64,000 nt of DNA from an uncultured Planctomycetales bacterium. GTDB lineage: Bacteria; Planctomycetota; Phycisphaerae; UBA1845; PWPN01. The notes under the pieces were generated by a model. That model saw nothing but the letters and a program-made list of their open reading frames with translations. It ran no database searches and was not told the DNA's origin. Numbering within the stretch: the stretch's first letter is position 1; every line of letters begins with the position of its first letter. Below, piece by piece: positions 1-17,652 of this stretch. Location: the NCBI GenBank assembly GCA_964618455.1, contig CAZUAQ010000010.1, forward strand, positions 1 to 64,000. The letters run 5' to 3'. The translations under genes and the position numbers were made by a program.

Positions 1-335
1 GCCTTTGTAACTCCTCTCGGCTCCCACAACCCCGGTCCGAAGACCGGTTTGGGCTAGATCCGCTTTCGCTCGCCGCTACTCACGGAGTCTCGGTTGATTT
101 CCTTTCCTCCAGGTACTGAGATGTGTCAGTTCCCTGGGTCGGCCCGACAGGCCTATGCATTCAGCCTGTCGCAATGCCATCTACTTGCGTAGTGACATTA
201 GGTTGCCCTATTCGGAGATCCCCGGATCTATCGCTTGTTTGACAGCTCCCCGGGGCTTATCGCAGCCTACCACGTCCTTCATCGCCTCTCGACACCTAGG
301 CATCCACCATGCACTCTTAGTAACTTGATCGCATG
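1..335 (-). rRNA. rrl: 23S ribosomal RNA, 5' part (continues beyond the window start)
   Basis: Reverse complement of 277-335 reads gatcaagttactaagagtgcatggtggatgcctagg...ggcgatgaaggacgtggtaggctgcgataagcc, the conserved 5' end of bacterial 23S rRNA. Confidence 0.85.
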
Positions 336-884
336 TATGACGGGCTGTCGACGTGAATCGACAAACCGCACCATCCACACTTTCAAGGCACCTTGACGCA
401 TCAAGGCGGTCTGCTCCGCCACGGCCGAAGCCGCAACGGCATCCACCGCCGGTCGCGTCATTCAACGATATCATTACGCCAAAACGTAAACACTCGAAGA
501 ATTGAACCTGTTGGTTGTGATGCTCACTACCTGCTGATGATCACGCACCTGCTCGCGCAGGTTCTGCGATCATCGATCTCACCTATCCAGTTGTCAAAGA
601 GCACGCGTCCCCATGGACGCATATCGTCACATCGTCCGAGGGCGAATTCCGCCGAAACGGCCGAAATCCCAAATCACCTCGGAGCCTAGCAAGTATACTC
701 GTCAATCGGCCGCTGTAAAGCCCACTGCGGCCGAAATCTTTACTTTTTTCGCGGCCTTTTTCGGGCTCGTCTCCACCGCAACGCGGTCGCCGAAACCGCC
801 GATCATGCACCCCCCGACGGGGGTCGTGATCAGGCCTTTCCGTGCCGTCCGCCGGGCTCGGGCGACGGTCCCACCCGAGTCACG

Positions 885-957
885 TGGAGCCGAGCGGGCT
901 CGAACCGCCAACCTCCTGGTTGCAAACCAGGCGCTCTCCCAGTTGAGCTACGGCCCC
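885..957 (-). tRNA. tRNA-Ala (anticodon TGC)
   Basis: Reverse complement ggggccgtagctcaactgggagagcgcctggtTTGCAAccagg...ggttcgagcccgctcggctcca; cloverleaf with anticodon loop tt-TGC-aa; sits in the ITS upstream of 23S. Confidence 0.9.
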
Positions 958-1006
958 GTATCCATCGACCGGGCTCACTACCGCCCGCGGCCGACGAAGA
1001 ATGCCA

Positions 1007-1080
1007 TGGGCCCGCGAGGATTCGAACCTCGGACCTCGTCGTTATCAGCGACGCGCTCTAACCAACTGAGCTACGAGCCC
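1007..1080 (-). tRNA. tRNA-Ile (anticodon GAT)
   Basis: Reverse complement gggctcgtagctcagttggttagagcgcgtcgCTGATAAcgacg...ggttcgaatcctcgcgggccca; anticodon loop ct-GAT-aa. Confidence 0.9.
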
Positions 1081-1158
1081 TCTTCAGTTGTCAGCCGCCT
1101 CCCGACGATCCTGCCTGCCCAGCCGACAATTTCCAAAAAACCGACTTTTCGTGAGGCG

Positions 1159-1187
1159 AAAAAAAAACCACCGACCCGAGTCGGCGG
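1159..1187 (-). terminator. Rho-independent terminator after the GATase/lipoprotein genes, upstream of the tRNA-23S unit
   Basis: On the minus strand ccgccgac-tcgg-gtcggtgg hairpin followed by a run of 9 T (plus strand has the A-run at 1159-1167). Confidence 0.5.
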
Positions 1188-1589
1188 TTCATCGCAGCAG
1201 GCGATAAACTTCGGCCTTCCGTCTAGGTCATCCCACGATCCCGGCTTGCCGGAACTCGGAATCCGTTGTCGGCTGGCATACGCAAAAGGCAGGATCCTCC
1301 GTTGGAGACCTCAAGACCGCTCATTCGCGGACCCACGCTCGTGAATCCACGGTTAAGTGTACATGCGTGTCGCGTTTTGTCAACCACGCGAAATCCACAC
1401 TCATGTCGACCTGTCCCCCGACAGGACTGCACCCAAAATGGCTGGATTCGATAGAATAATCGCCAATATTCCAGGAAATACATTCTCACTTTAATTGGCC
1501 TAGTTCACCCGTCTCGGGGCTATCTTGCAGCGTGAGCTTCGACCATTCGACGGCATCGCCTGCAGAACATGCTCCGGCTCCGCCCGATT

Positions 1590-1901
1590 TCATTCTTCGT
1601 ACCAAGTGAAATCGGTAAGCCGAGCGATGGGTACCACGTCTCCCCCGCCACCCTTCCGATACAGCACGATGTAATTCTCATGAAAGTCGATCCCCGTATA
1701 CTCCTGTAGAGAGTCGCTGCTGTGGTAGCCTTCGCCATGTGCTCTTGGGGTCCTGAAGGAGACCCTCAGTTTTCCCCTGACCCGTTTGGCGACGGCCGGG
1801 GCCTCTTCACTTCGGCCCGCTTGATCTGCTCCGCAGGCCAGATTTGTCAGGAAGCAGGCGCCCGCCACGAAACCGACCCACAACAGTGATGACTTACGCA
1901 T
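1590..1901 (-). CDS. Small secreted/lipoprotein-like protein (103 aa), hypothetical
   Basis: Internal Met of the 1590..2348 ORF (MRKSSLLWVGFVAGACFLTNLAC...) gives a signal peptide with a Cys after the h-region; an ATG reverse complement is at 1899-1901; the longer ORF's N-terminal part overlaps the GATase gene. Confidence 0.5.
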   Translation of the reverse strand: MRKSSLLWVGFVAGACFLTNLACGADQAGRSEEAPAVAKRVRGKLRVSFRTPRAHGEGYHSSDSLQEYTGIDFHENYIVLYRKGGGGDVVPIARLTDFTWYEE

Positions 1902-1932
1902 GTCTTGTACCCCTGCAAGGAATCCCGTGAAC

Positions 1933-2649
1933 TCAAATGTCGTCGTTCTGAAAAAGAGTGTTCCAACGCTGAACCAGTTCTCGCGCCTGCTGGTTCTGTC
2001 GTGCCAGTGCCGGTTCCAGACGATTTCGGTACTGCTCGAAACGATCCTCTTCCGGCAGCGCCGCCAGCTCATCCGCGCAGACGTGAACGAGGTTCTGCAC
2101 GATGTCCATCGTGCATTCGAGGTGGAACTGCAGGCCGTAGACACGGCGGCCGAGGCGAAAGGCCTGTTGCTCGTAGCGATGTGATCGGGCGAGCTGCACC
2201 GCCCCTTCCGGCATGTCGTATGTGTCGCCATGCCACTGGAACACTTCCAACTCCCGGGGAAGCGCGGCGAAGAGTGGATCGCTGTCCGAGCCGAGCGTCC
2301 GCTCGATCGGGAACAGACCGATCTCCTTCGGGCGTTGGGCATAGACACGGGCGCCGGCGGCGCGGGCGAGCAACTGACACCCCAGGCAGATGCCGAGGAC
2401 CGGCGCGTCGCGCCGAATCAATTCCACCAGCAGCGCGCGTTCGGGCGTGAGGTACGCATGCTTGTCCGTGTCATCCACGTTCATCGGGCCGCCCATCACC
2501 AGCCAGGCCTCGTAGTCGTCCGGGCCAGGCACGGGCGCGCCGCCATACAACGGCACACGCGTCAGCGCATGCCCCGCCTCCCGCAACGCTGCGCCGAAGA
2601 TTCCCTCGTTTTCACATTCGAAATGCTGCAATACCGCGATGCGCGCCAC
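1933..2649 (-). CDS. Class I glutamine amidotransferase-like protein
   Basis: 238 aa; GATase1 core motif GICLGCQLL with downstream His/Glu; compact single-domain protein. Confidence 0.7.
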   Translation of the reverse strand: MARIAVLQHFECENEGIFGAALREAGHALTRVPLYGGAPVPGPDDYEAWLVMGGPMNVDDTDKHAYLTPERALLVELIRRDAPVLGICLGCQLLARAAGARVYAQRPKEIGLFPIERTLGSDSDPLFAALPRELEVFQWHGDTYDMPEGAVQLARSHRYEQQAFRLGRRVYGLQFHLECTMDIVQNLVHVCADELAALPEEDRFEQYRNRLEPALARQNQQARELVQRWNTLFQNDDI

Positions 2650-2953
2650 AATCGGACCTCCGTGGGTGAGTCACAGGCAACTGCCATGGCTGGATCCGCG
2701 CATTGTAACGCACGTGAACACGCGTGACAGCGTCGCCGGGGCGTAAATGGAGGCTGAGAAAGTGTGTGAGAAGCTCTTCCAGAGAAAAGGACAGTCCCTG
2801 AGCTTGACACACACGTTCTGAGGCTTGCGAAGATGGGCACTGCCGCTTTCATCTTGTTTCGCCTCCTGCCGATGAATAAGATGATAGGTTGTGATTCAGG
2901 GCCCATCCGGCAAGTCTTTGCCGACTCCAGAACATCCGAGGTCAACGAATTCC

Positions 2954-5900
2954 ATGTCGCGGTTCAGACATGCTTGTGCAGTCCTCCTCTGGATGCTGAT
3001 CGTTCCGATGATGACGGAGCGCCTTTCGGCGGCGGAATCGCTTCCGGCTGATCGCTTGACGACCGATGCGCCGACTCCCGTCATTTACAGCCGGGACATC
3101 AAACCGATCCTCTCCGAAAACTGCTACACCTGCCACGGCCCTGACGCGAACCAGCGTAAAGCCAAGCTGCGGCTCGACACGCATGAAGGCGCCACGGGGG
3201 AATACCGCTCCGACCGCTACGCCGTGGTGCCCGGCGATCTGACGGCCAGCACGCTGATCCAGCGGATCACGACCGACGACGAATTTGATCGCATGCCGCC
3301 GGTGGACAGCGGGAAGGATCTCTCCGCGCGCGAGATCGATCTGCTCCAGCGCTGGGTGGCCGATGGCGCCCCGTTCGATCGGCACTGGTCGTACCAGCCT
3401 CCCGTCCGACCGGAGGTGCCCACACCGGCCGCCCATGCCGAACGCGTGCGTAATCCCATCGACGCCTACGTGTTTTCGAGGCTGGAATCAGAGGGCCTCG
3501 CGCCTTCTCCGGAGGCGGACCGGCGGACGCTGCTTCGGCGTCTCTCCTTCGACCTGACCGGGCTTCCGCCCCAACCGGACGACGTCGAGGCCTTTGAAGC
3601 CGCCACCTCACCGGAAGCTTACACACATGCCGTGGATCGCCTGCTCGCCTCTCCCCATTTCGGCGAACGCATGGCCATCTACTGGCTCGACCTCGTGCGC
3701 TACGCGGACACGACGGGCATCCATGGGGACAACCACCGCGAGGTTTCGGCGTACCGCGACTACGTCATCGATGCGTTCAACCACAACAAGCCGTTCGACT
3801 GGTTCACGGTGGAACAACTCGCGGGCGACCTTCTTCCGGACCCGACGACCGAACAACTTGTCGCCTCCGGTTACAACCGGCTTCTGATGACCACGGAGGA
3901 AGGCGGAGCGCAGCCCAAGGAGTACCGGGCGAAGTACGACGCGGATCGCGTGCGCAATGTGTCCTCGGTGTGGCTGGGTTCGACGATGGCCTGCGCGCAG
4001 TGCCACGACCATAAGTACGACCCGTTCACGATGAAGGATTTCTATAGCCTCGCCTCCTACTTCGCGGACATCAAGGAGACGGAGGTCGGGACGCAGCCGC
4101 CGAATCTCCGCCTGCCCACCGATGCCCAGCGCGAGCAACTGCGCCGGCTGGACAAGAGGATCGCGCAGGCACAGCGCCGGCTCGACACGCAGACGCCCGA
4201 ACTCGACGAGGCCTTGGCGGCCTGGGAATCGAAGGTCCGCGAATCGCAATCGATCTGGACCGCGCTCACTCCGCATGTGGCGGCTTCTCCGGGGGGATCG
4301 AATCTGCATGTTCAGGATGACGATTCGCTCTTCGTGGACGGCACTTCGGCCCAACAGGAACGGTATGTCATCGCGACCTTCACACCCTTGACCGGGATCA
4401 CCGGCCTCCGCCTGGAGGTGATGGCGGACGATCGCCTTCCCGCCAAGGGGCCGGGTCGGGCGCCGAATGGGAACTTCGTTCTCAACGAGTTGTCCGTCTA
4501 CGCCGCGGCGGCGGAACGACCGGGCGAGCAGCAACGCCTGGTTCTGCAGAACGCGACGGCGGACTTCAACCAGGACGGCTTTTCGGTCGAACGGGCCATT
4601 GACAGCGACCTGGCGACGGGCTGGGCGATCATGCCCTCCTCCGGTCGATCGCACCAGGCGGTGTTTGAAACGGACGTGGACGCCGGCTTCGCCGGGGGCA
4701 CCGTGCTCACCTTCGTGCTGGATCAGCACTACGGCAGCATGCATGCGATCGGACGGCTCCGCTTCTCCGTGACCACCGAGCAGCGTCCACTCACGGCGAC
4801 GGACCACATCGCGCCGCCGGCAGAGATCCGCGAGCTGGTCATGATCGCCCCGGAGGCGCGCACACCAGAGCAGCAGGCATCCATTGCCGCGCATTTCCGA
4901 AGCGTCACCCCCCTGCTTCAGCCGGCGCGCGATCGACTGGCTTCGTTGCAGCAACGGCATCAGGAGATAAACGCGGCGGTCCGCACGATGCTGATCAGCG
5001 AATCGATCGAGGAACCGCGGACGGTGCGCGTGCTGCCGCGTGGTAACTGGCTGGATGAGTCGGGCGAGGAAGTCGCGCCCGAGGTCCCCGCCGTGCTGGC
5101 CTCTTACGAACCCACCGATATTCCGAAGGATCCGCCCGCCCGGCCGACGCGACTGGATCTGGCGCGCTGGTTGACGGATCCCGAGAATCCGCTGGTGGCA
5201 CGGGTCCTCGTGAACCGGTTGTGGAAGATCATGTACGGCCGCGGCCTGGTGAGCACGCTGGAAGACTTCGGCTCGCAGGGCGATTGGCCGACGCATCCGG
5301 AGCTGCTCGACTGGCTGGCGGTGGAGTTCATCGACAGCGGGTGGGACGTCAAGCACATGCTCCGGCTGATGGCCCATTCGGAAACGTACCGCCAGACATC
5401 GGAAGTCACGACGGCTGCGATCGAGCGGGATCCGCTGAATCGTTTGCTGAGCCGACAGAACACGTTCCGCCTTCCGGCTGAATGCGTTCGCGACAATGCC
5501 CTGGCGGTCAGCGGCCTTCTGAATCGTGAGATCGGCGGGCGCAGCGTCAAGCCCTACCAGCCGGCGGGCTACTGGCAGCATCTGAACTATCCCAAGCGGA
5601 CGTACGAGGCGGACCAGGGCCACGCGCTGTATCGGCGCGGCCTCTACACGTACTGGTGCCGGACCTTCCTGCATCCGAGTCTGCTGGCGTTCGACGCGCC
5701 TACGCGTGAGGAGTGCACGGTGGAGCGGACTCGATCCAATACGCCGCTTCAGGCGCTGGTGCTGCTGAACGATCCGGCCTATGTGGAGGCGGCGCGGGCC
5801 CTGGCGGCACGCGTGCTGACGGAGGGCGGTGCGACCTTCGATGAGAGGTTGGGCCATGCGTACCACCTGGTGCTTCACCGGATAGCCCGGCCCTCGGAAA

Positions 5901-6088
5901 TGGAAACGCTGCGGACGCTCCTCGAGAAGCACATGTCGGATTACGCCGAGAATCCGGACCTGGCCGAGGCCCTGCTCGGTGTCGGCCATTATTCGGCGCC
6001 GGCGAATCTGGATCCCGTGGAACTGGCGGCCTGGACCTCGGTGACGCGGACGATTCTCAATCTGCACGAAACGATCACGCGGTACTGA
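2954..6088 (+). CDS. PSCyt1/PSCyt2/PSD1 (planctomycete cytochrome-c domain + DUF1549 + DUF1553) protein
   Basis: Signal peptide from the Met at 2954 (MSRFRHACAVLLWMLIVPMM); heme-binding-like CYTCHGPDANQRKAKLRLD motif; about 1040 aa; immediately followed by a DUF1501 partner, the typical planctomycete pair. Confidence 0.8.
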   Translation: MSRFRHACAVLLWMLIVPMMTERLSAAESLPADRLTTDAPTPVIYSRDIKPILSENCYTCHGPDANQRKAKLRLDTHEGATGEYRSDRYAVVPGDLTASTLIQRITTDDEFDRMPPVDSGKDLSAREIDLLQRWVADGAPFDRHWSYQPPVRPEVPTPAAHAERVRNPIDAYVFSRLESEGLAPSPEADRRTLLRRLSFDLTGLPPQPDDVEAFEAATSPEAYTHAVDRLLASPHFGERMAIYWLDLVRYADTTGIHGDNHREVSAYRDYVIDAFNHNKPFDWFTVEQLAGDLLPDPTTEQLVASGYNRLLMTTEEGGAQPKEYRAKYDADRVRNVSSVWLGSTMACAQCHDHKYDPFTMKDFYSLASYFADIKETEVGTQPPNLRLPTDAQREQLRRLDKRIAQAQRRLDTQTPELDEALAAWESKVRESQSIWTALTPHVAASPGGSNLHVQDDDSLFVDGTSAQQERYVIATFTPLTGITGLRLEVMADDRLPAKGPGRAPNGNFVLNELSVYAAAAERPGEQQRLVLQNATADFNQDGFSVERAIDSDLATGWAIMPSSGRSHQAVFETDVDAGFAGGTVLTFVLDQHYGSMHAIGRLRFSVTTEQRPLTATDHIAPPAEIRELVMIAPEARTPEQQASIAAHFRSVTPLLQPARDRLASLQQRHQEINAAVRTMLISESIEEPRTVRVLPRGNWLDESGEEVAPEVPAVLASYEPTDIPKDPPARPTRLDLARWLTDPENPLVARVLVNRLWKIMYGRGLVSTLEDFGSQGDWPTHPELLDWLAVEFIDSGWDVKHMLRLMAHSETYRQTSEVTTAAIERDPLNRLLSRQNTFRLPAECVRDNALAVSGLLNREIGGRSVKPYQPAGYWQHLNYPKRTYEADQGHALYRRGLYTYWCRTFLHPSLLAFDAPTREECTVERTRSNTPLQALVLLNDPAYVEAARALAARVLTEGGATFDERLGHAYHLVLHRIARPSEMETLRTLLEKHMSDYAENPDLAEALLGVGHYSAPANLDPVELAAWTSVTRTILNLHETITRY

Positions 6089-6109
6089 CGCGCGTGGGAC
6101 GGGACAGTC

Positions 6110-7546
6110 ATGAATCTTGAAGATCGCATCGGCATCAAAGAGACTCGGCGAACGTTCCTGGGGCGGGCGACGCACAGCATCGGCGCGATCGCGCTGGCTT
6201 CGCTGATGAACCCGGCGCGGCTCCTGTCCGCGGCCCCCCCCGCCGCCCTGGGGTCGCGCGGGATCGTGAACCCCCTGCACTTTGCCCCGAAGGCCAAGCG
6301 CATCATCCATCTGTACATGGCGGGCGGGCCGTCGCACCTGGAGACTTTCGATCCCAAGCCGAAGCTGGCGGAGATGCACGGCAAACCGATGCCCGACAGC
6401 TACACCAAGGGTCAGCCGATCGCGCAGCTCCAGGGGAAGCAGCTCAACTGCTTTGCCCCGCAATACCCGTTCCGAAAGTACGGCGAGAGCGGGCAGGAGA
6501 TCTGCGAACTGTTCCCGCACATCGGGTCCGTGGCGGATGACATCTGCATCCTGCGTTCGCTGCACACGGAAGCGATCAACCACGACCCGGCGCACACGTT
6601 CATGAACACGGGCACGACGATCTCCGGCCGTCCGGCGATGGGCGCGTGGCTGCTCTACGGCCTCGGGGCCGAAAGCGAGAACCTGCCCGGCTTCGTCGTG
6701 CTGACCTCCGAAGGCAAGTTCGGCCAGGCCCAGCCGATCGCCGCGCGGCAGTGGCACAGCGGTTTCCTGCCGAGCAAGTACCAGGGCGTCCAGTTCCAGT
6801 CGCAGGGGGACCCGGTGCTGTACGTGCGCAACCCGGACGGAGTCCTGCCCGACCAGCAGCGTGACATCGTCGAGGCGGTCAATACGCTGAACCGCGAACA
6901 CGGCGAAACGATCGAGGATCCGGAGATCGCCACGCGGATCGCGCAGTACGAGATGGCGTTCAGGATGCAGACCAGCGTGCCGGAACTGATGGACCTGGCT
7001 GACGAGCCGGAGTCGGTCAAGGCGATGTACGGTACGGAGGGGGCGGACGGCACTTTCGCGGCGAACTGCCTGCTGGCCCGGCGACTGGCGGAGCGCGGCG
7101 TGCGTTTCATCCAGGTGTATCACCGCGGCTGGGATCACCACGACGGCATCAAGAAGAACATCAAGGGCACGGCGAGCGAAGTCGACCAGGCGTCGGCGGC
7201 ACTGATCCGGGATCTCAAGCAGCGCGGCATGCTCGAGGAGACACTGGTGCTCTGGGGCGGTGAGTTCGGGCGGACGCCCATGGCCCAAGGTAACGGGCGC
7301 GATCATCACATCAAGGGCTACTCCATGTGGATGGCCGGTGGCGGGATTCAGGGCGGTGTCGCGTACGGGGCGACGGACGAACTGGGGTACAACGCCGAGG
7401 AGAACAAGGTTCACATGCACGACCTGCACGCCACGATGCTGCATCTGCTCGGCGTCGATCACGAACGGCTGACCTACCGCTTCCAGGGACGCGACTTCCG
7501 CCTGACGGATGTGGCGGGGCATGTCGTCAGCGATATTCTGGCGTGA
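6110..7546 (+). CDS. DUF1501 (sulfatase-like fold) protein with Tat-type signal
   Basis: N-terminus TRRTFLGRATHSIGAIALA (twin-arginine); 478 aa; HTEAINHDPAHTFMNTG and GGEFGRTP motifs typical of DUF1501. Confidence 0.8.
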   Translation: MNLEDRIGIKETRRTFLGRATHSIGAIALASLMNPARLLSAAPPAALGSRGIVNPLHFAPKAKRIIHLYMAGGPSHLETFDPKPKLAEMHGKPMPDSYTKGQPIAQLQGKQLNCFAPQYPFRKYGESGQEICELFPHIGSVADDICILRSLHTEAINHDPAHTFMNTGTTISGRPAMGAWLLYGLGAESENLPGFVVLTSEGKFGQAQPIAARQWHSGFLPSKYQGVQFQSQGDPVLYVRNPDGVLPDQQRDIVEAVNTLNREHGETIEDPEIATRIAQYEMAFRMQTSVPELMDLADEPESVKAMYGTEGADGTFAANCLLARRLAERGVRFIQVYHRGWDHHDGIKKNIKGTASEVDQASAALIRDLKQRGMLEETLVLWGGEFGRTPMAQGNGRDHHIKGYSMWMAGGGIQGGVAYGATDELGYNAEENKVHMHDLHATMLHLLGVDHERLTYRFQGRDFRLTDVAGHVVSDILA

Positions 7547-16049: not shown

Positions 16050-17300
16050 TCAACCCACGCCGGCCGTCTCGCGCCGGGCGCGGATGATCTCGTCGAACGC
16101 GCTGAGCTTCGGCGGAATCACCGGCGGTTCCTCGAGCCGGTCCACGACTGCCTCGATGGTCTTGAGTCCCTGGCCGGTCACGCTGATGACGATGGACTCG
16201 TCGCGCGGGATGCGGCCCTGCTCGATGAGCTTCTTCGTCACCGCCACGGTCGTTCCACCGGCGGGCTCGGTCCAGAGCCCTTCGCACTCGGCCAGTTCCT
16301 TGATGCCGTCCACGATCTCGTCGTCGGTGACGCTCTCGGCCCAGCCGCCGGATTCCTGCACCGCCTGGACCACGTAGTAGCCGTCGGCGGGGTTGCCGAT
16401 GGCGATCGACTTGGCCAGCGTGTTCGGTTTCTGCGGGGCGATGAGATCGGTGCCCTCGTGAACGGCCTTGACCACCGGATTGCAGCCGCCCGCCTGCGCG
16501 GAATACACCTTGCACGGCGTATCCTCGACCAGTCCGATCTTCACGAACTCGCGGAACGCCTTGTGCACCTTGGGCAGGATCGTTCCCCCGGCGGTCGGCA
16601 CCACGATATGCTGCGGCAGACGCCACCCGAGCTGTTCCGCCACCTCGTAACCATAGGTCTTCGCGCCCTCGGTGTAGTACGGCCGAAGGTTCACGTTGAC
16701 GATCGCCCAGCCGTACTTGTCGGCGATTTCCGCGCAGAGGCGGTTCACGTCGTCGTAGTTGCCCTCGATCTTGACCATGTGGGGCTTGTAGATCAACGAG
16801 CCGACGACTTTGCCCAGCTCGAGATCGTGGGGAATCATGACGTAGGCGGGCTTGCCGACGTGGGCGGAGTGGGCAGCGACGCTGTTGGCCAGGTTGCCCG
16901 TGCTCGCACAGCCGAAGGTGTCGAAGCCGAACTCCAGCCCCTTGCTGATGGCCACGCTGACCACGCGCTCCTTGTAGGACAGCGTGGGCACGTTGACCGA
17001 GTCGTCCTTGATGTACAACTCGCGGCAGCCCCACCGCGCGCCAAGGTTCTTCGCCCGACGAAGCGGCGTCCAGCCGGAATGTTCTCCCGTGGCAGGCTCG
17101 CCTTCGACGGGCAGCAGATCACGGTAACGCCACAACGAGGCCGGGCCGGCCGCGATCGACTCGCGCGTCACCTTGCCCTTCATGGCCTCGTAATCGTATT
17201 CCACCTCGACCGGTCCGAAACACATGTCGCAGACGTGAATCGGCTCGATGGGATATCGTTGACCGCACTCCCGGCACTTCAGCCCGATGACATAACTCAT
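16050..17300 (-). CDS. Threonine-synthase-like PLP enzyme with N-terminal Cys4 zinc ribbon
   Basis: Start at MSYVIGLKCRECGQRYPIEPIHVCDMCFG (ATG reverse complement at 17298-17300, RBS aggaag); fold-type II PLP motifs (TLSYKERV... Lys, GCASTGN, PTAGGT); ThrC-like length. Confidence 0.75.
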   Translation of the reverse strand: MSYVIGLKCRECGQRYPIEPIHVCDMCFGPVEVEYDYEAMKGKVTRESIAAGPASLWRYRDLLPVEGEPATGEHSGWTPLRRAKNLGARWGCRELYIKDDSVNVPTLSYKERVVSVAISKGLEFGFDTFGCASTGNLANSVAAHSAHVGKPAYVMIPHDLELGKVVGSLIYKPHMVKIEGNYDDVNRLCAEIADKYGWAIVNVNLRPYYTEGAKTYGYEVAEQLGWRLPQHIVVPTAGGTILPKVHKAFREFVKIGLVEDTPCKVYSAQAGGCNPVVKAVHEGTDLIAPQKPNTLAKSIAIGNPADGYYVVQAVQESGGWAESVTDDEIVDGIKELAECEGLWTEPAGGTTVAVTKKLIEQGRIPRDESIVISVTGQGLKTIEAVVDRLEEPPVIPPKLSAFDEIIRARRETAGVG

Positions 17301-17455
17301 GCCTGACTTCCTGCTTTCGTGGCCCATGCTCCCGGGCGGTATGCCGAGAGACAGGATTGGACACCGACCCGCTGCAATCCCGAACGAAAGACCCCAGGCA
17401 TCTTGTCGAAAGGGGAGGTCTGGGCAAGGCCGGCAAGGTTCCGAAGGCATGCCGC

Positions 17456-17500: not shown

Positions 17501-17520
17501 CGCTGAAAGGAATGGGCCCC

Positions 17521-17652
17521 CTTATCTTCCCCGCGCCGATTCGGGCCGGGTTGGAGTTAGCACCCTACTGCGGATCAGCCGATCGGGCCTTTCCCAGCGG
17601 GTTGCTGTGGCTTCACAGGGCCAATCCCTCCGCCACTCTCGATAAGAGACCT
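17521..17652 (-). ncRNA. SAM-I (S-box) riboswitch aptamer
   Basis: Minus strand: cucuuaucGAGAGuGGcGGAGGGAuUGGCCCugUGAAgccacaGCAACCc...GGUGCUAAcUCCaac...GAAGAUAAG; matches the S-box consensus (P1 cuuauc/gauaag, AGAG.GG, GGAGGGA, UGGCCC, GCAACC, GGUGCUAA). Confidence 0.8.

Follow-up and report, generated by a model that had tools for sequence, protein, structure and literature searches.

A 23S rRNA gene preceded by tRNA-Ile and tRNA-Ala, without an upstream 16S rRNA gene, in a planctomycete contig

Gene content of the locus

The window, by which we mean the whole stretch of 64,000 nucleotides that was analysed, opens inside a 23S rRNA gene that is read on the minus strand and whose remainder lies beyond the window start (Table 1). 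Upstream of it, on the same strand, are a tRNA-Ala gene and a tRNA-Ile gene separated by 49 nt, and the minus-strand series tRNA-Ile, tRNA-Ala, boxA, 23S has the order and orientation of a canonical ITS. The initial annotation, made from the sequence alone, had listed a terminator, tRNA-Ile(GAT), tRNA-Ala(TGC), a spacer and 23S on this strand; Rfam, ARAGORN and a terminator scan confirm each element, with the spacer measuring 553 nt. Its statement that the classical spacer tRNAs go with the 23S gene also holds, in canonical order and orientation.

Table 1. Coordinates of features at the 23S end of the window, in order of distance from the window start
Feature	Position	Strand	Evidence or remark
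23S rRNA gene, 5' end (model positions 1-326)	330..1	minus	Rfam RF02541 (cmscan), bacterial LSU, 240 bits, E 6e-75
boxA antitermination motif (candidate), TGCTCTTTGACAA	603..591	minus	Exact consensus match, 273 nt before 23S
boxB-like hairpin, GCGTCC-ATGG-GGACGC	620..605	minus	Read from the sequence, directly upstream of boxA
Candidate rrl promoter, -35 TTTACA (719..714), 16-nt spacer, -10 TATACT (697..692)	719..692	minus	10/12 match
A-rich UP-element-like tract, AAAAAAGTAAAGATTT	749..734	minus	Upstream of the -35 hexamer
Region between tRNA-Ala and 23S, 553 nt	883..331	minus	
tRNA-Ala(TGC)	957..884	minus	ARAGORN; Rfam tRNA (957..885), 66.7 bits
tRNA-Ile(GAT)	1080..1007	minus	ARAGORN; Rfam tRNA, 73.5 bits
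Stretch between terminator T-run and tRNA-Ile, 75 nt	1155..1081	minus	No sigma-70-like site of at least 9/12
Intrinsic terminator	1190..1156	minus	11-pair hairpin (1190..1165) and T9 (1164..1156)
Promoter-like site, TTGACA-16-TACACT	1383..1356	minus	10/12 match
Small ORF, 103 aa	1901..1590	minus	N-terminal signal or lipoprotein-like sequence; nearest upstream protein gene
Class-I glutamine amidotransferase gene	2649..1933	minus	PF00117, E 1.6e-19

The small ORF upstream of the tRNA genes, a putative secreted protein, has no Pfam match and is absent from L044, the most closely related locus that we found. Further upstream, beyond the amidotransferase gene, positions 2891-7546 encode a PSCyt1/PSCyt2/PSD1 protein and its DUF1501 partner, a gene pair typical of Planctomycetota. 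Since this pair adjoins the locus and the closest loci in our survey all belong to Planctomycetota, the window organism is a planctomycete. Between the small ORF and tRNA-Ile (1081-1590) there is no convincing ORF, in agreement with the initial annotation, which had described the 500 bp upstream of tRNA-Ile as non-coding; the stretch is, however, not featureless, as it contains a promoter-like site (1383..1356) followed by a terminator.

We found no 16S rRNA gene in the window. An Rfam search of the whole 64 kb (cmscan, gathering threshold) returned no SSU rRNA match, and positions 1-4000 contain no SSU fragment even at E<=10 with permissive filters. The initial annotation had proposed that this 23S gene is unlinked from 16S, which it did not find upstream; the absence of 16S from the 63 kb before tRNA-Ile upholds the proposal. 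Any 16S gene on that side is at least 63 kb from tRNA-Ile, the side beyond 23S lying outside the window, and none is present where a canonical linked rrn operon has it, which is no more than ~1.5 kb ahead of the spacer tRNAs and 23S. Brewer et al. (bioRxiv 10.1101/705046) regard rRNA genes as unlinked when over 1500 bp separates the nearest 16S and 23S genes, and on its upstream side the window exceeds this distance.

Distribution of the arrangement in Planctomycetota

From a species-representative genome collection, scanned with the anticodon arm of the window's tRNA-Ile, we extracted 120 loci, 76 of which are labelled Planctomycetota. The loci were oriented on tRNA-Ile and annotated with ARAGORN, with BLAST (using a 16S query and the complete 23S gene of locus L003) and, for 18 loci, with Rfam. 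In 58 of the 76 Planctomycetota loci the sequence extends 1.7 kb or more upstream of tRNA-Ile, and we observed a 16S gene there in none of them. Downstream sequence was sufficient in 48 loci: 24 have the order Ile-Ala-23S seen in the window, 12 have the Ile-Ala pair without rRNA within 1.5-7 kb, and in the other 12 tRNA-Ile stands alone.

The Ile-Ala-23S order is present across several planctomycete lineages. The 23S 5' end of L044 is 87% identical to that of the window, the next-closest loci (L100, L033, L003 and L052) are at ~83%, and the Pirellulaceae loci are at ~67-70%. The amidotransferase gene upstream of tRNA-Ile is syntenic in L044, and the nucleotide identity of that region is 70%. 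A 5S gene follows 23S in the relatives L003 and L036, the 3' end of the window's own 23S gene being outside the window. In one locus, L107, tRNA-Ala and 23S are separated by two protein genes, one of them on the opposite strand. Because 24 loci share the layout, several of them on contigs of 0.9-2.9 Mb (L037, L087 and L096), we conclude that the Ile-Ala-23S order without 16S is an old trait common in the phylum and neither a private rearrangement nor an assembly error. The initial annotation had read the layout as the record of an event in this genome, a reading that these counts contradict.

We also examined the 16S side in related DNA. In L034, a Planctomycetota MAG, the 16S gene has no 23S gene within 2.3 kb downstream; it is preceded by the promoter-like sequence TTGACA-16-TATTAT at -346 and by boxA at -286, and a terminator consisting of a hairpin and T8 lies ~200 nt past its 3' end. 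A metagenome scan, for which the query was the target of the PLA886 probe, a planctomycete 16S signature, yielded 120 contigs, only 14 of which carry a 16S 3' end together with at least 400 nt of downstream sequence. Seven of the 14 have no 23S gene after 16S, and after the removal of L169, a partial hit, six remain. None of the six carries a tRNA, 23S or boxA downstream of the unlinked 16S gene, and in four a strong intrinsic terminator is found 84-271 nt after it. The scan also contains five contigs in which 16S and 23S are linked, all of them without a spacer tRNA. Three of the five carry both planctomycete 16S signatures. Within the scan as a whole, L132 and L189 are probably not planctomycetes, since the PLA46 signature is absent though the 16S 5' end is present, and L219 matches the reference 16S poorly (64%). 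Given that L034 has its own promoter, boxA and terminator, and that all six unlinked contigs are without a downstream tRNA or 23S gene, the unlinked planctomycete 16S gene is an autonomous unit, after which the Ile and Ala tRNAs were not found.

Candidate promoters, boxA and the unit upstream of tRNA-Ile

A TTGACA-16-TAnnnT promoter is located within 200 nt upstream of tRNA-Ile, mostly at 40-130 nt, in 65 of the 76 Planctomycetota loci, a pattern suggesting that the tRNA-Ile/tRNA-Ala pair is normally a self-sufficient unit in the phylum. The window and its five closest relatives (L044, L100, L003, L052 and L033) are exceptions. Between the window's terminator and tRNA-Ile the best candidate that we could pick out by eye, TTGGAA-17-CAGGAT, is weak (7/12), and the equivalent terminator-to-tRNA stretch of the five relatives likewise contains no site of at least 9/12. 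The initial annotation had suggested mapping the rrl promoter in 1081-1160; no site of at least 9/12 is found there, and the best candidate lies in the spacer instead.

In the spacer, the candidate rrl promoter is downstream of tRNA-Ala and ~90 nt upstream of boxA, with an expected start near 685. Its -35 hexamer is TTTACA and not TTGACA, which counts against the assignment. The A-rich tract that precedes it may function as an UP element; similar A-rich tracts are present in L044, L100, L007, L008 and L050, and in L044 the sequence TTGACA-16-TAAACT follows the tract at the same relative place as the window's candidate. The boxB-like hairpin and boxA follow one another as in classical rrn leaders. 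A further site in the output of the promoter scan, TTGACA-17-GATGAT at 597..569, was rejected as being the boxA motif itself. We stress that our promoter and boxA assignments are consensus matches.

All 24 Ile-Ala-23S loci have a boxA, with at most 3 mismatches, 194-425 nt before 23S. In 20 of the 24, boxA is preceded at 30-210 nt by a promoter-like site, and the layout of the window is a recurring one; in shuffled sequences the corresponding count averages 1.4 and never exceeds 5 (500 rounds), and the flanks give a rate of 0.026 per 180 nt, shuffles and flanks being the baseline here rather than the true ITS of linked operons. In L107, boxA and a promoter-like site still stand in front of 23S despite the intervening protein genes. 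No site of at least 9/12 is found between tRNA-Ala and boxA in L004 or in the short-spacer close relatives L003, L052 and L033, and in these four loci 23S may depend on upstream transcription.

We searched for a leader boxA upstream of tRNA-Ile as well and found no convincing match there in any locus, and none at all in the window; the few matches with 3 mismatches in other loci were set aside, as they are the -35 TTGACA of the tRNA promoter. In E. coli, boxA is found downstream of the spacer tRNAs in classical linked operons too, and for this reason boxA alone does not show a separate unit. Taken together, the excess of promoter-like sites over shuffled sequence, the presence of boxA and the arrangement in L107 indicate that 23S is probably transcribed from a promoter of its own that lies past tRNA-Ala, at 719..692. 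On this evidence the 553-nt region would be the promoter and leader of rrl rather than a plain ITS.

The sequences flanking 23S in L100, L003 and L036 pair with each other at -50 to -61 kcal/mol, compared with ~-30 to -35 kcal/mol after shuffling, and none of 300 shuffles paired as well; for the window, the 3' partner lies outside the window. The pairing predicted in these relatives has the appearance of a self-contained processing stalk.

The terminator that precedes tRNA-Ile is the only terminator-like site in positions 1-2500. Together with the promoter-like site farther upstream, it bounds an unannotated unit of ~190 nt (1383..1156). The five closest relatives have the same architecture, including the hairpin and T-run, with the promoter 220-380 nt upstream of tRNA-Ile; in all six loci the predicted promoter would give an RNA of 140-240 nt that ends at an intrinsic terminator, with tRNA-Ile beginning 47-174 nt farther on. 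The unit matched no Rfam family, at E<=10 for the window and at E<=1 for the five relatives, and the fold predicted for the window's version does not stand out from shuffled sequences in stability (z = -1.0). We considered 6S RNA, for which a paired 5'/3' rod is not evident. The units of L003, L052 and L033 align with one another and share one stem with compensatory changes. An nhmmer profile built from these three finds no match in the window, L044 or L100, and the six units therefore have an architecture in common without detectable common sequence. A conserved peptide is unlikely because the small ORFs, as we read them, fall in different frames.

A fossil 16S processing stalk was another candidate for this region. 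It was suggested by an 11-nt complementarity between CCAGCCGACAA (~1275..1265) and TTGTCGGCTGG (~1137..1127), which flank the terminator. We rejected it because a significant duplex energy was obtained for the window alone (z = -4.6), the values for the five relatives, none of them significant, ranging from z = +1.0 to -1.9.

The promoter-to-terminator unit is the only potentially new element of the locus. As a speculative suggestion, to which we give little weight, it could be an undescribed sRNA gene, or a leader of the attenuator type, in which conditional read-through would govern how much of the essential tRNA-Ile and tRNA-Ala is made. Such read-through would perhaps contribute to 23S transcription also.

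Interpretation and relation to known rRNA gene arrangements

Unlinked rRNA genes are the norm in Planctomycetota, and we consider it likely that the window shows the 23S-side half of such an arrangement, with the 23S gene most likely on its own promoter. We hypothesize that the counterpart of the classical 16S-tRNA-23S-5S operon exists in this phylum as up to three separate transcription units: the 16S gene with its own promoter, boxA and terminator; the tRNA-Ile/tRNA-Ala pair; and 23S-5S. The window would then contain the second and third of these, head to tail. Transcription of 23S would begin at the sigma-70-type promoter in the spacer, and the transcript would pass the boxB-like hairpin and then boxA, which, if it works as a Nus antitermination site as it does in E. 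coli, would load the antitermination complex; ~260 nt past boxA it would reach the 5' strand of the 23S processing stalk. As there is no terminator between tRNA-Ala and the spacer promoter, transcripts that contain the tRNA pair may extend into 23S as well. The window's own tRNA pair, which is without a recognisable promoter and stands behind a strong terminator, is not accounted for by this three-unit model.

The origin of the tRNA pair has to be considered in its own right. It is plausible that the pair marks the point at which an ancestral operon was broken, as the initial annotation held. The exact match of the order Ile, Ala, boxA, 23S to the canonical one makes that proposal reasonable. 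It is unproven, however, since the pair behaves in this phylum as an autonomous unit that can be separated from 23S, and since it occurs alone both here and in Actinobacteria. Alternatively, the pair could be no relic of an ITS at all but a separate tRNA operon, of the kind seen in Actinobacteria, which reached its place beside 23S secondarily or was kept there for co-regulation. Several observations agree with such an origin: the strong TTGACA-16 promoter of the pair's own in 65 of the 76 Planctomycetota loci; the 12 loci in which the pair stands alone and the 12 more with tRNA-Ile alone; the stand-alone Ile-Ala pairs of Pseudonocardia, Actinomycetospora and other Actinobacteria, which were matched by the same search pattern; and the absence of ITS tRNAs both from our five linked contigs and from a linked planctomycete operon reported in the literature (PMC7534041). 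We nevertheless think an independent origin unlikely, given that the exact canonical order, on one strand, is found in half of the informative loci and in several lineages, and that descent from an ITS would be the simpler history, since stand-alone pairs can be derived states.

Somewhat more doubtful still is a single transcription unit, in effect an rrn operon minus 16S, in which a promoter at 1081-1160 would drive tRNA-Ile, tRNA-Ala, a true processed spacer and 23S-5S. The gene order and orientation are those of a canonical ITS, no terminator intervenes from tRNA-Ala to 23S, boxA comes after the tRNAs as in the classical ITS of E. coli, and L003, L052 and L033 have no spacer promoter, all of which would be expected of a single unit. 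Against it, there is no site of at least 9/12 in 1081-1164 or in the corresponding part of the loci of the five closest relatives, a strong terminator stands directly upstream of the stretch that leads to tRNA-Ile, a promoter-like site precedes boxA in most of the Ile-Ala-23S loci, with the window and L044 among them, and in L107 protein genes divide the tRNA pair from 23S. Finally, the loss of an upstream 16S gene through misassembly of repeated rRNA genes, which often break assemblies and might be suspected in a window that itself starts inside 23S, is highly improbable in view of the 63 kb of ordinary single-copy genes past tRNA-Ile, the 24 independent assemblies with the same layout, some of them on the megabase-scale contigs named above, and the syntenic amidotransferase gene of L044.

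Compared with the classical rrn operon of the E. coli rrnA/D/H type, the window has the same one-strand order of tRNA-Ile, tRNA-Ala, boxB/boxA and 23S, and the 23S genes of its relatives appear likewise to be flanked by a processing stalk. It differs in being without 16S, in having a terminator directly before tRNA-Ile and a promoter-like site between tRNA-Ala and boxA, and in the unusual length of the region from tRNA-Ala to 23S (553 nt; 327-991 nt in most relatives). In Borrelia burgdorferi the rRNA region consists of 16S, tRNA-Ala, farther on tRNA-Ile, and 23S-5S-23S-5S. There too a split cluster has kept a spacer tRNA upstream of 23S, but each half has one of the two spacer tRNAs, whereas here both are on the 23S side. 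The stand-alone Ile-Ala pairs of Actinobacteria (Pseudonocardia, Actinomycetospora and Arthrobacter loci) resemble the window's in being a tandem independent of 16S, and the 12 stand-alone planctomycete pairs are equivalent to them; unlike these, the pair in the window adjoins 23S. Helicobacter pylori has an unlinked 23S-5S unit with an experimentally mapped promoter and an RNase III processing stalk (PMC6582327). The likeness extends to the separate 23S-5S unit, the consensus promoter, the leader and a processing stem of its own; the start is mapped in H. pylori and only predicted here, and a tRNA-Ile/tRNA-Ala pair is found directly upstream only here.

The closest counterparts are the unlinked rRNA genes of Planctomycetota themselves, which the initial annotation had correctly described as known (bioRxiv 10.1101/705046; PMC6995999; PMC7534041; PMC13514998). 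Unlinked rRNA genes in Pirellula marina are attributed to Liesack and Stackebrandt (1989) as cited in PMC13514998 and PMC7761764, separate 16S and 23S-5S genes are routine in planctomycete genome descriptions (PMC6995999 for Lacipirellula parvula; PMC7534041; PMC13514998), and Brewer et al. have surveyed unlinked rRNA genes across Bacteria and Archaea (bioRxiv 10.1101/705046). The window agrees with the published cases in the 16S gene being far more than 1.5 kb from 23S(-5S), in its planctomycete host, the published host being a free-living planctomycete to which the window organism may be likened, and in clade-wide conservation; nothing essential is different. With such genes on record in planctomycetes since 1989, and by now recognised as widespread, the present locus changes no existing picture. 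In the literature that we searched, from which two key older papers were missing, we found no description of where tRNA-Ile and tRNA-Ala lie in unlinked planctomycete rRNA operons, nor of promoters or boxA in these genes.

The position of the tRNAs and the promoter and boxA anatomy add a little descriptive detail to a known kind of system. The addition is that the tRNA pair either accompanies 23S or occurs by itself, with no case found downstream of 16S, that each piece appears to have a promoter of its own, and that both rRNA units keep boxA. Parallel promoter-boxA units would be a testable answer to the question of how rRNA is synthesized stoichiometrically without a common transcript. A practical consequence of the arrangement is that methods based on 16S-ITS-23S amplicons will miss such organisms.

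The unit upstream of tRNA-Ile

The tRNA-Ile gene of the window is adjoined on its upstream side by an unannotated unit of ~190 nt (1156-1383). The layout of promoter, RNA and terminator is common to the window and five related Planctomycetota loci (L044, which is the closest relative, L100, L003, L052 and L033); in none of these five was sequence similarity to the window's unit detectable, and no Rfam family matched it. The CCAGCCGACAA / TTGTCGGCTGG duplex beats shuffled sequences in the window only (z = -4.6), the equivalent duplexes around the terminator in relatives being not significant versus shuffles.

Features of the window and of related loci (L-numbers)
Feature	Location	Strand	Description
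~190-nt unit	window 1156-1383	minus	TTGACA-16-TACACT promoter, RNA, hairpin + T9 terminator
CCAGCCGACAA / TTGTCGGCTGG	window ~1265-1275 and ~1127-1137	minus	11-nt perfect complementarity flanking the terminator
SAM riboswitch	window 17519-17648	minus	RF00162, 81 bits
Gap-ORF peptide	L003		MNWGLLALIGIVVVLMLLRAKGGG, stop
Gap-ORF peptide	L052		MSWGMLALIGVAVVLMLMRVRGGG, stop
Gap-ORF peptide	L033		MPNWGYLVILAGAFVLLLLLRAKGGG, stop
Group I intron in 23S	L003 3412-4108	minus	RF00028, 51 bits
Insert, gene 1	L107, within 2604-5524	opposite	MATE-like membrane protein
Insert, gene 2	L107, within 2604-5524		374-aa secreted protein

Intervals on either side of tRNA-Ala

Between tRNA-Ile and tRNA-Ala, L003, L052, L033 and L100 contain a tiny conserved ORF, whose product is a hydrophobic peptide with basic residues and GGG-stop at its end; the 49-nt gap of the window holds no ORF of this kind. 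Downstream of tRNA-Ala, two protein genes are inserted before the 23S gene in L107. The corresponding spacer of L090 carries three promoter-like TTGACC-16-TAAACT sites, 110 nt apart, and a fourth promoter-like site closer to the boxA antitermination motif, from which its sequence suggests tandem repeated promoters before 23S.

Ribosomal RNA genes in relatives and a riboswitch in the window

In L034, from a Planctomycetota MAG (coordinates oriented on tRNA-Ile), the 16S gene (4118-5660) lies 3.6 kb downstream of tRNA-Ile (near 460-530), and no 23S was found after it within 2.3 kb downstream. Its 16S trailer has a motif of GAAACTGG-repeat, GTCTCYAGTGAG and small hairpin that L003, L052 and L033 also carry between tRNA-Ala and 23S. 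In L003 a group I intron lies within the 23S gene. That of L036 spans 3.7 kb (2947-6680), a length suggestive of an insertion. Elsewhere in the window, a SAM riboswitch precedes a PLP-dependent enzyme ORF (17450..16050, PF00291), which is an ordinary arrangement.
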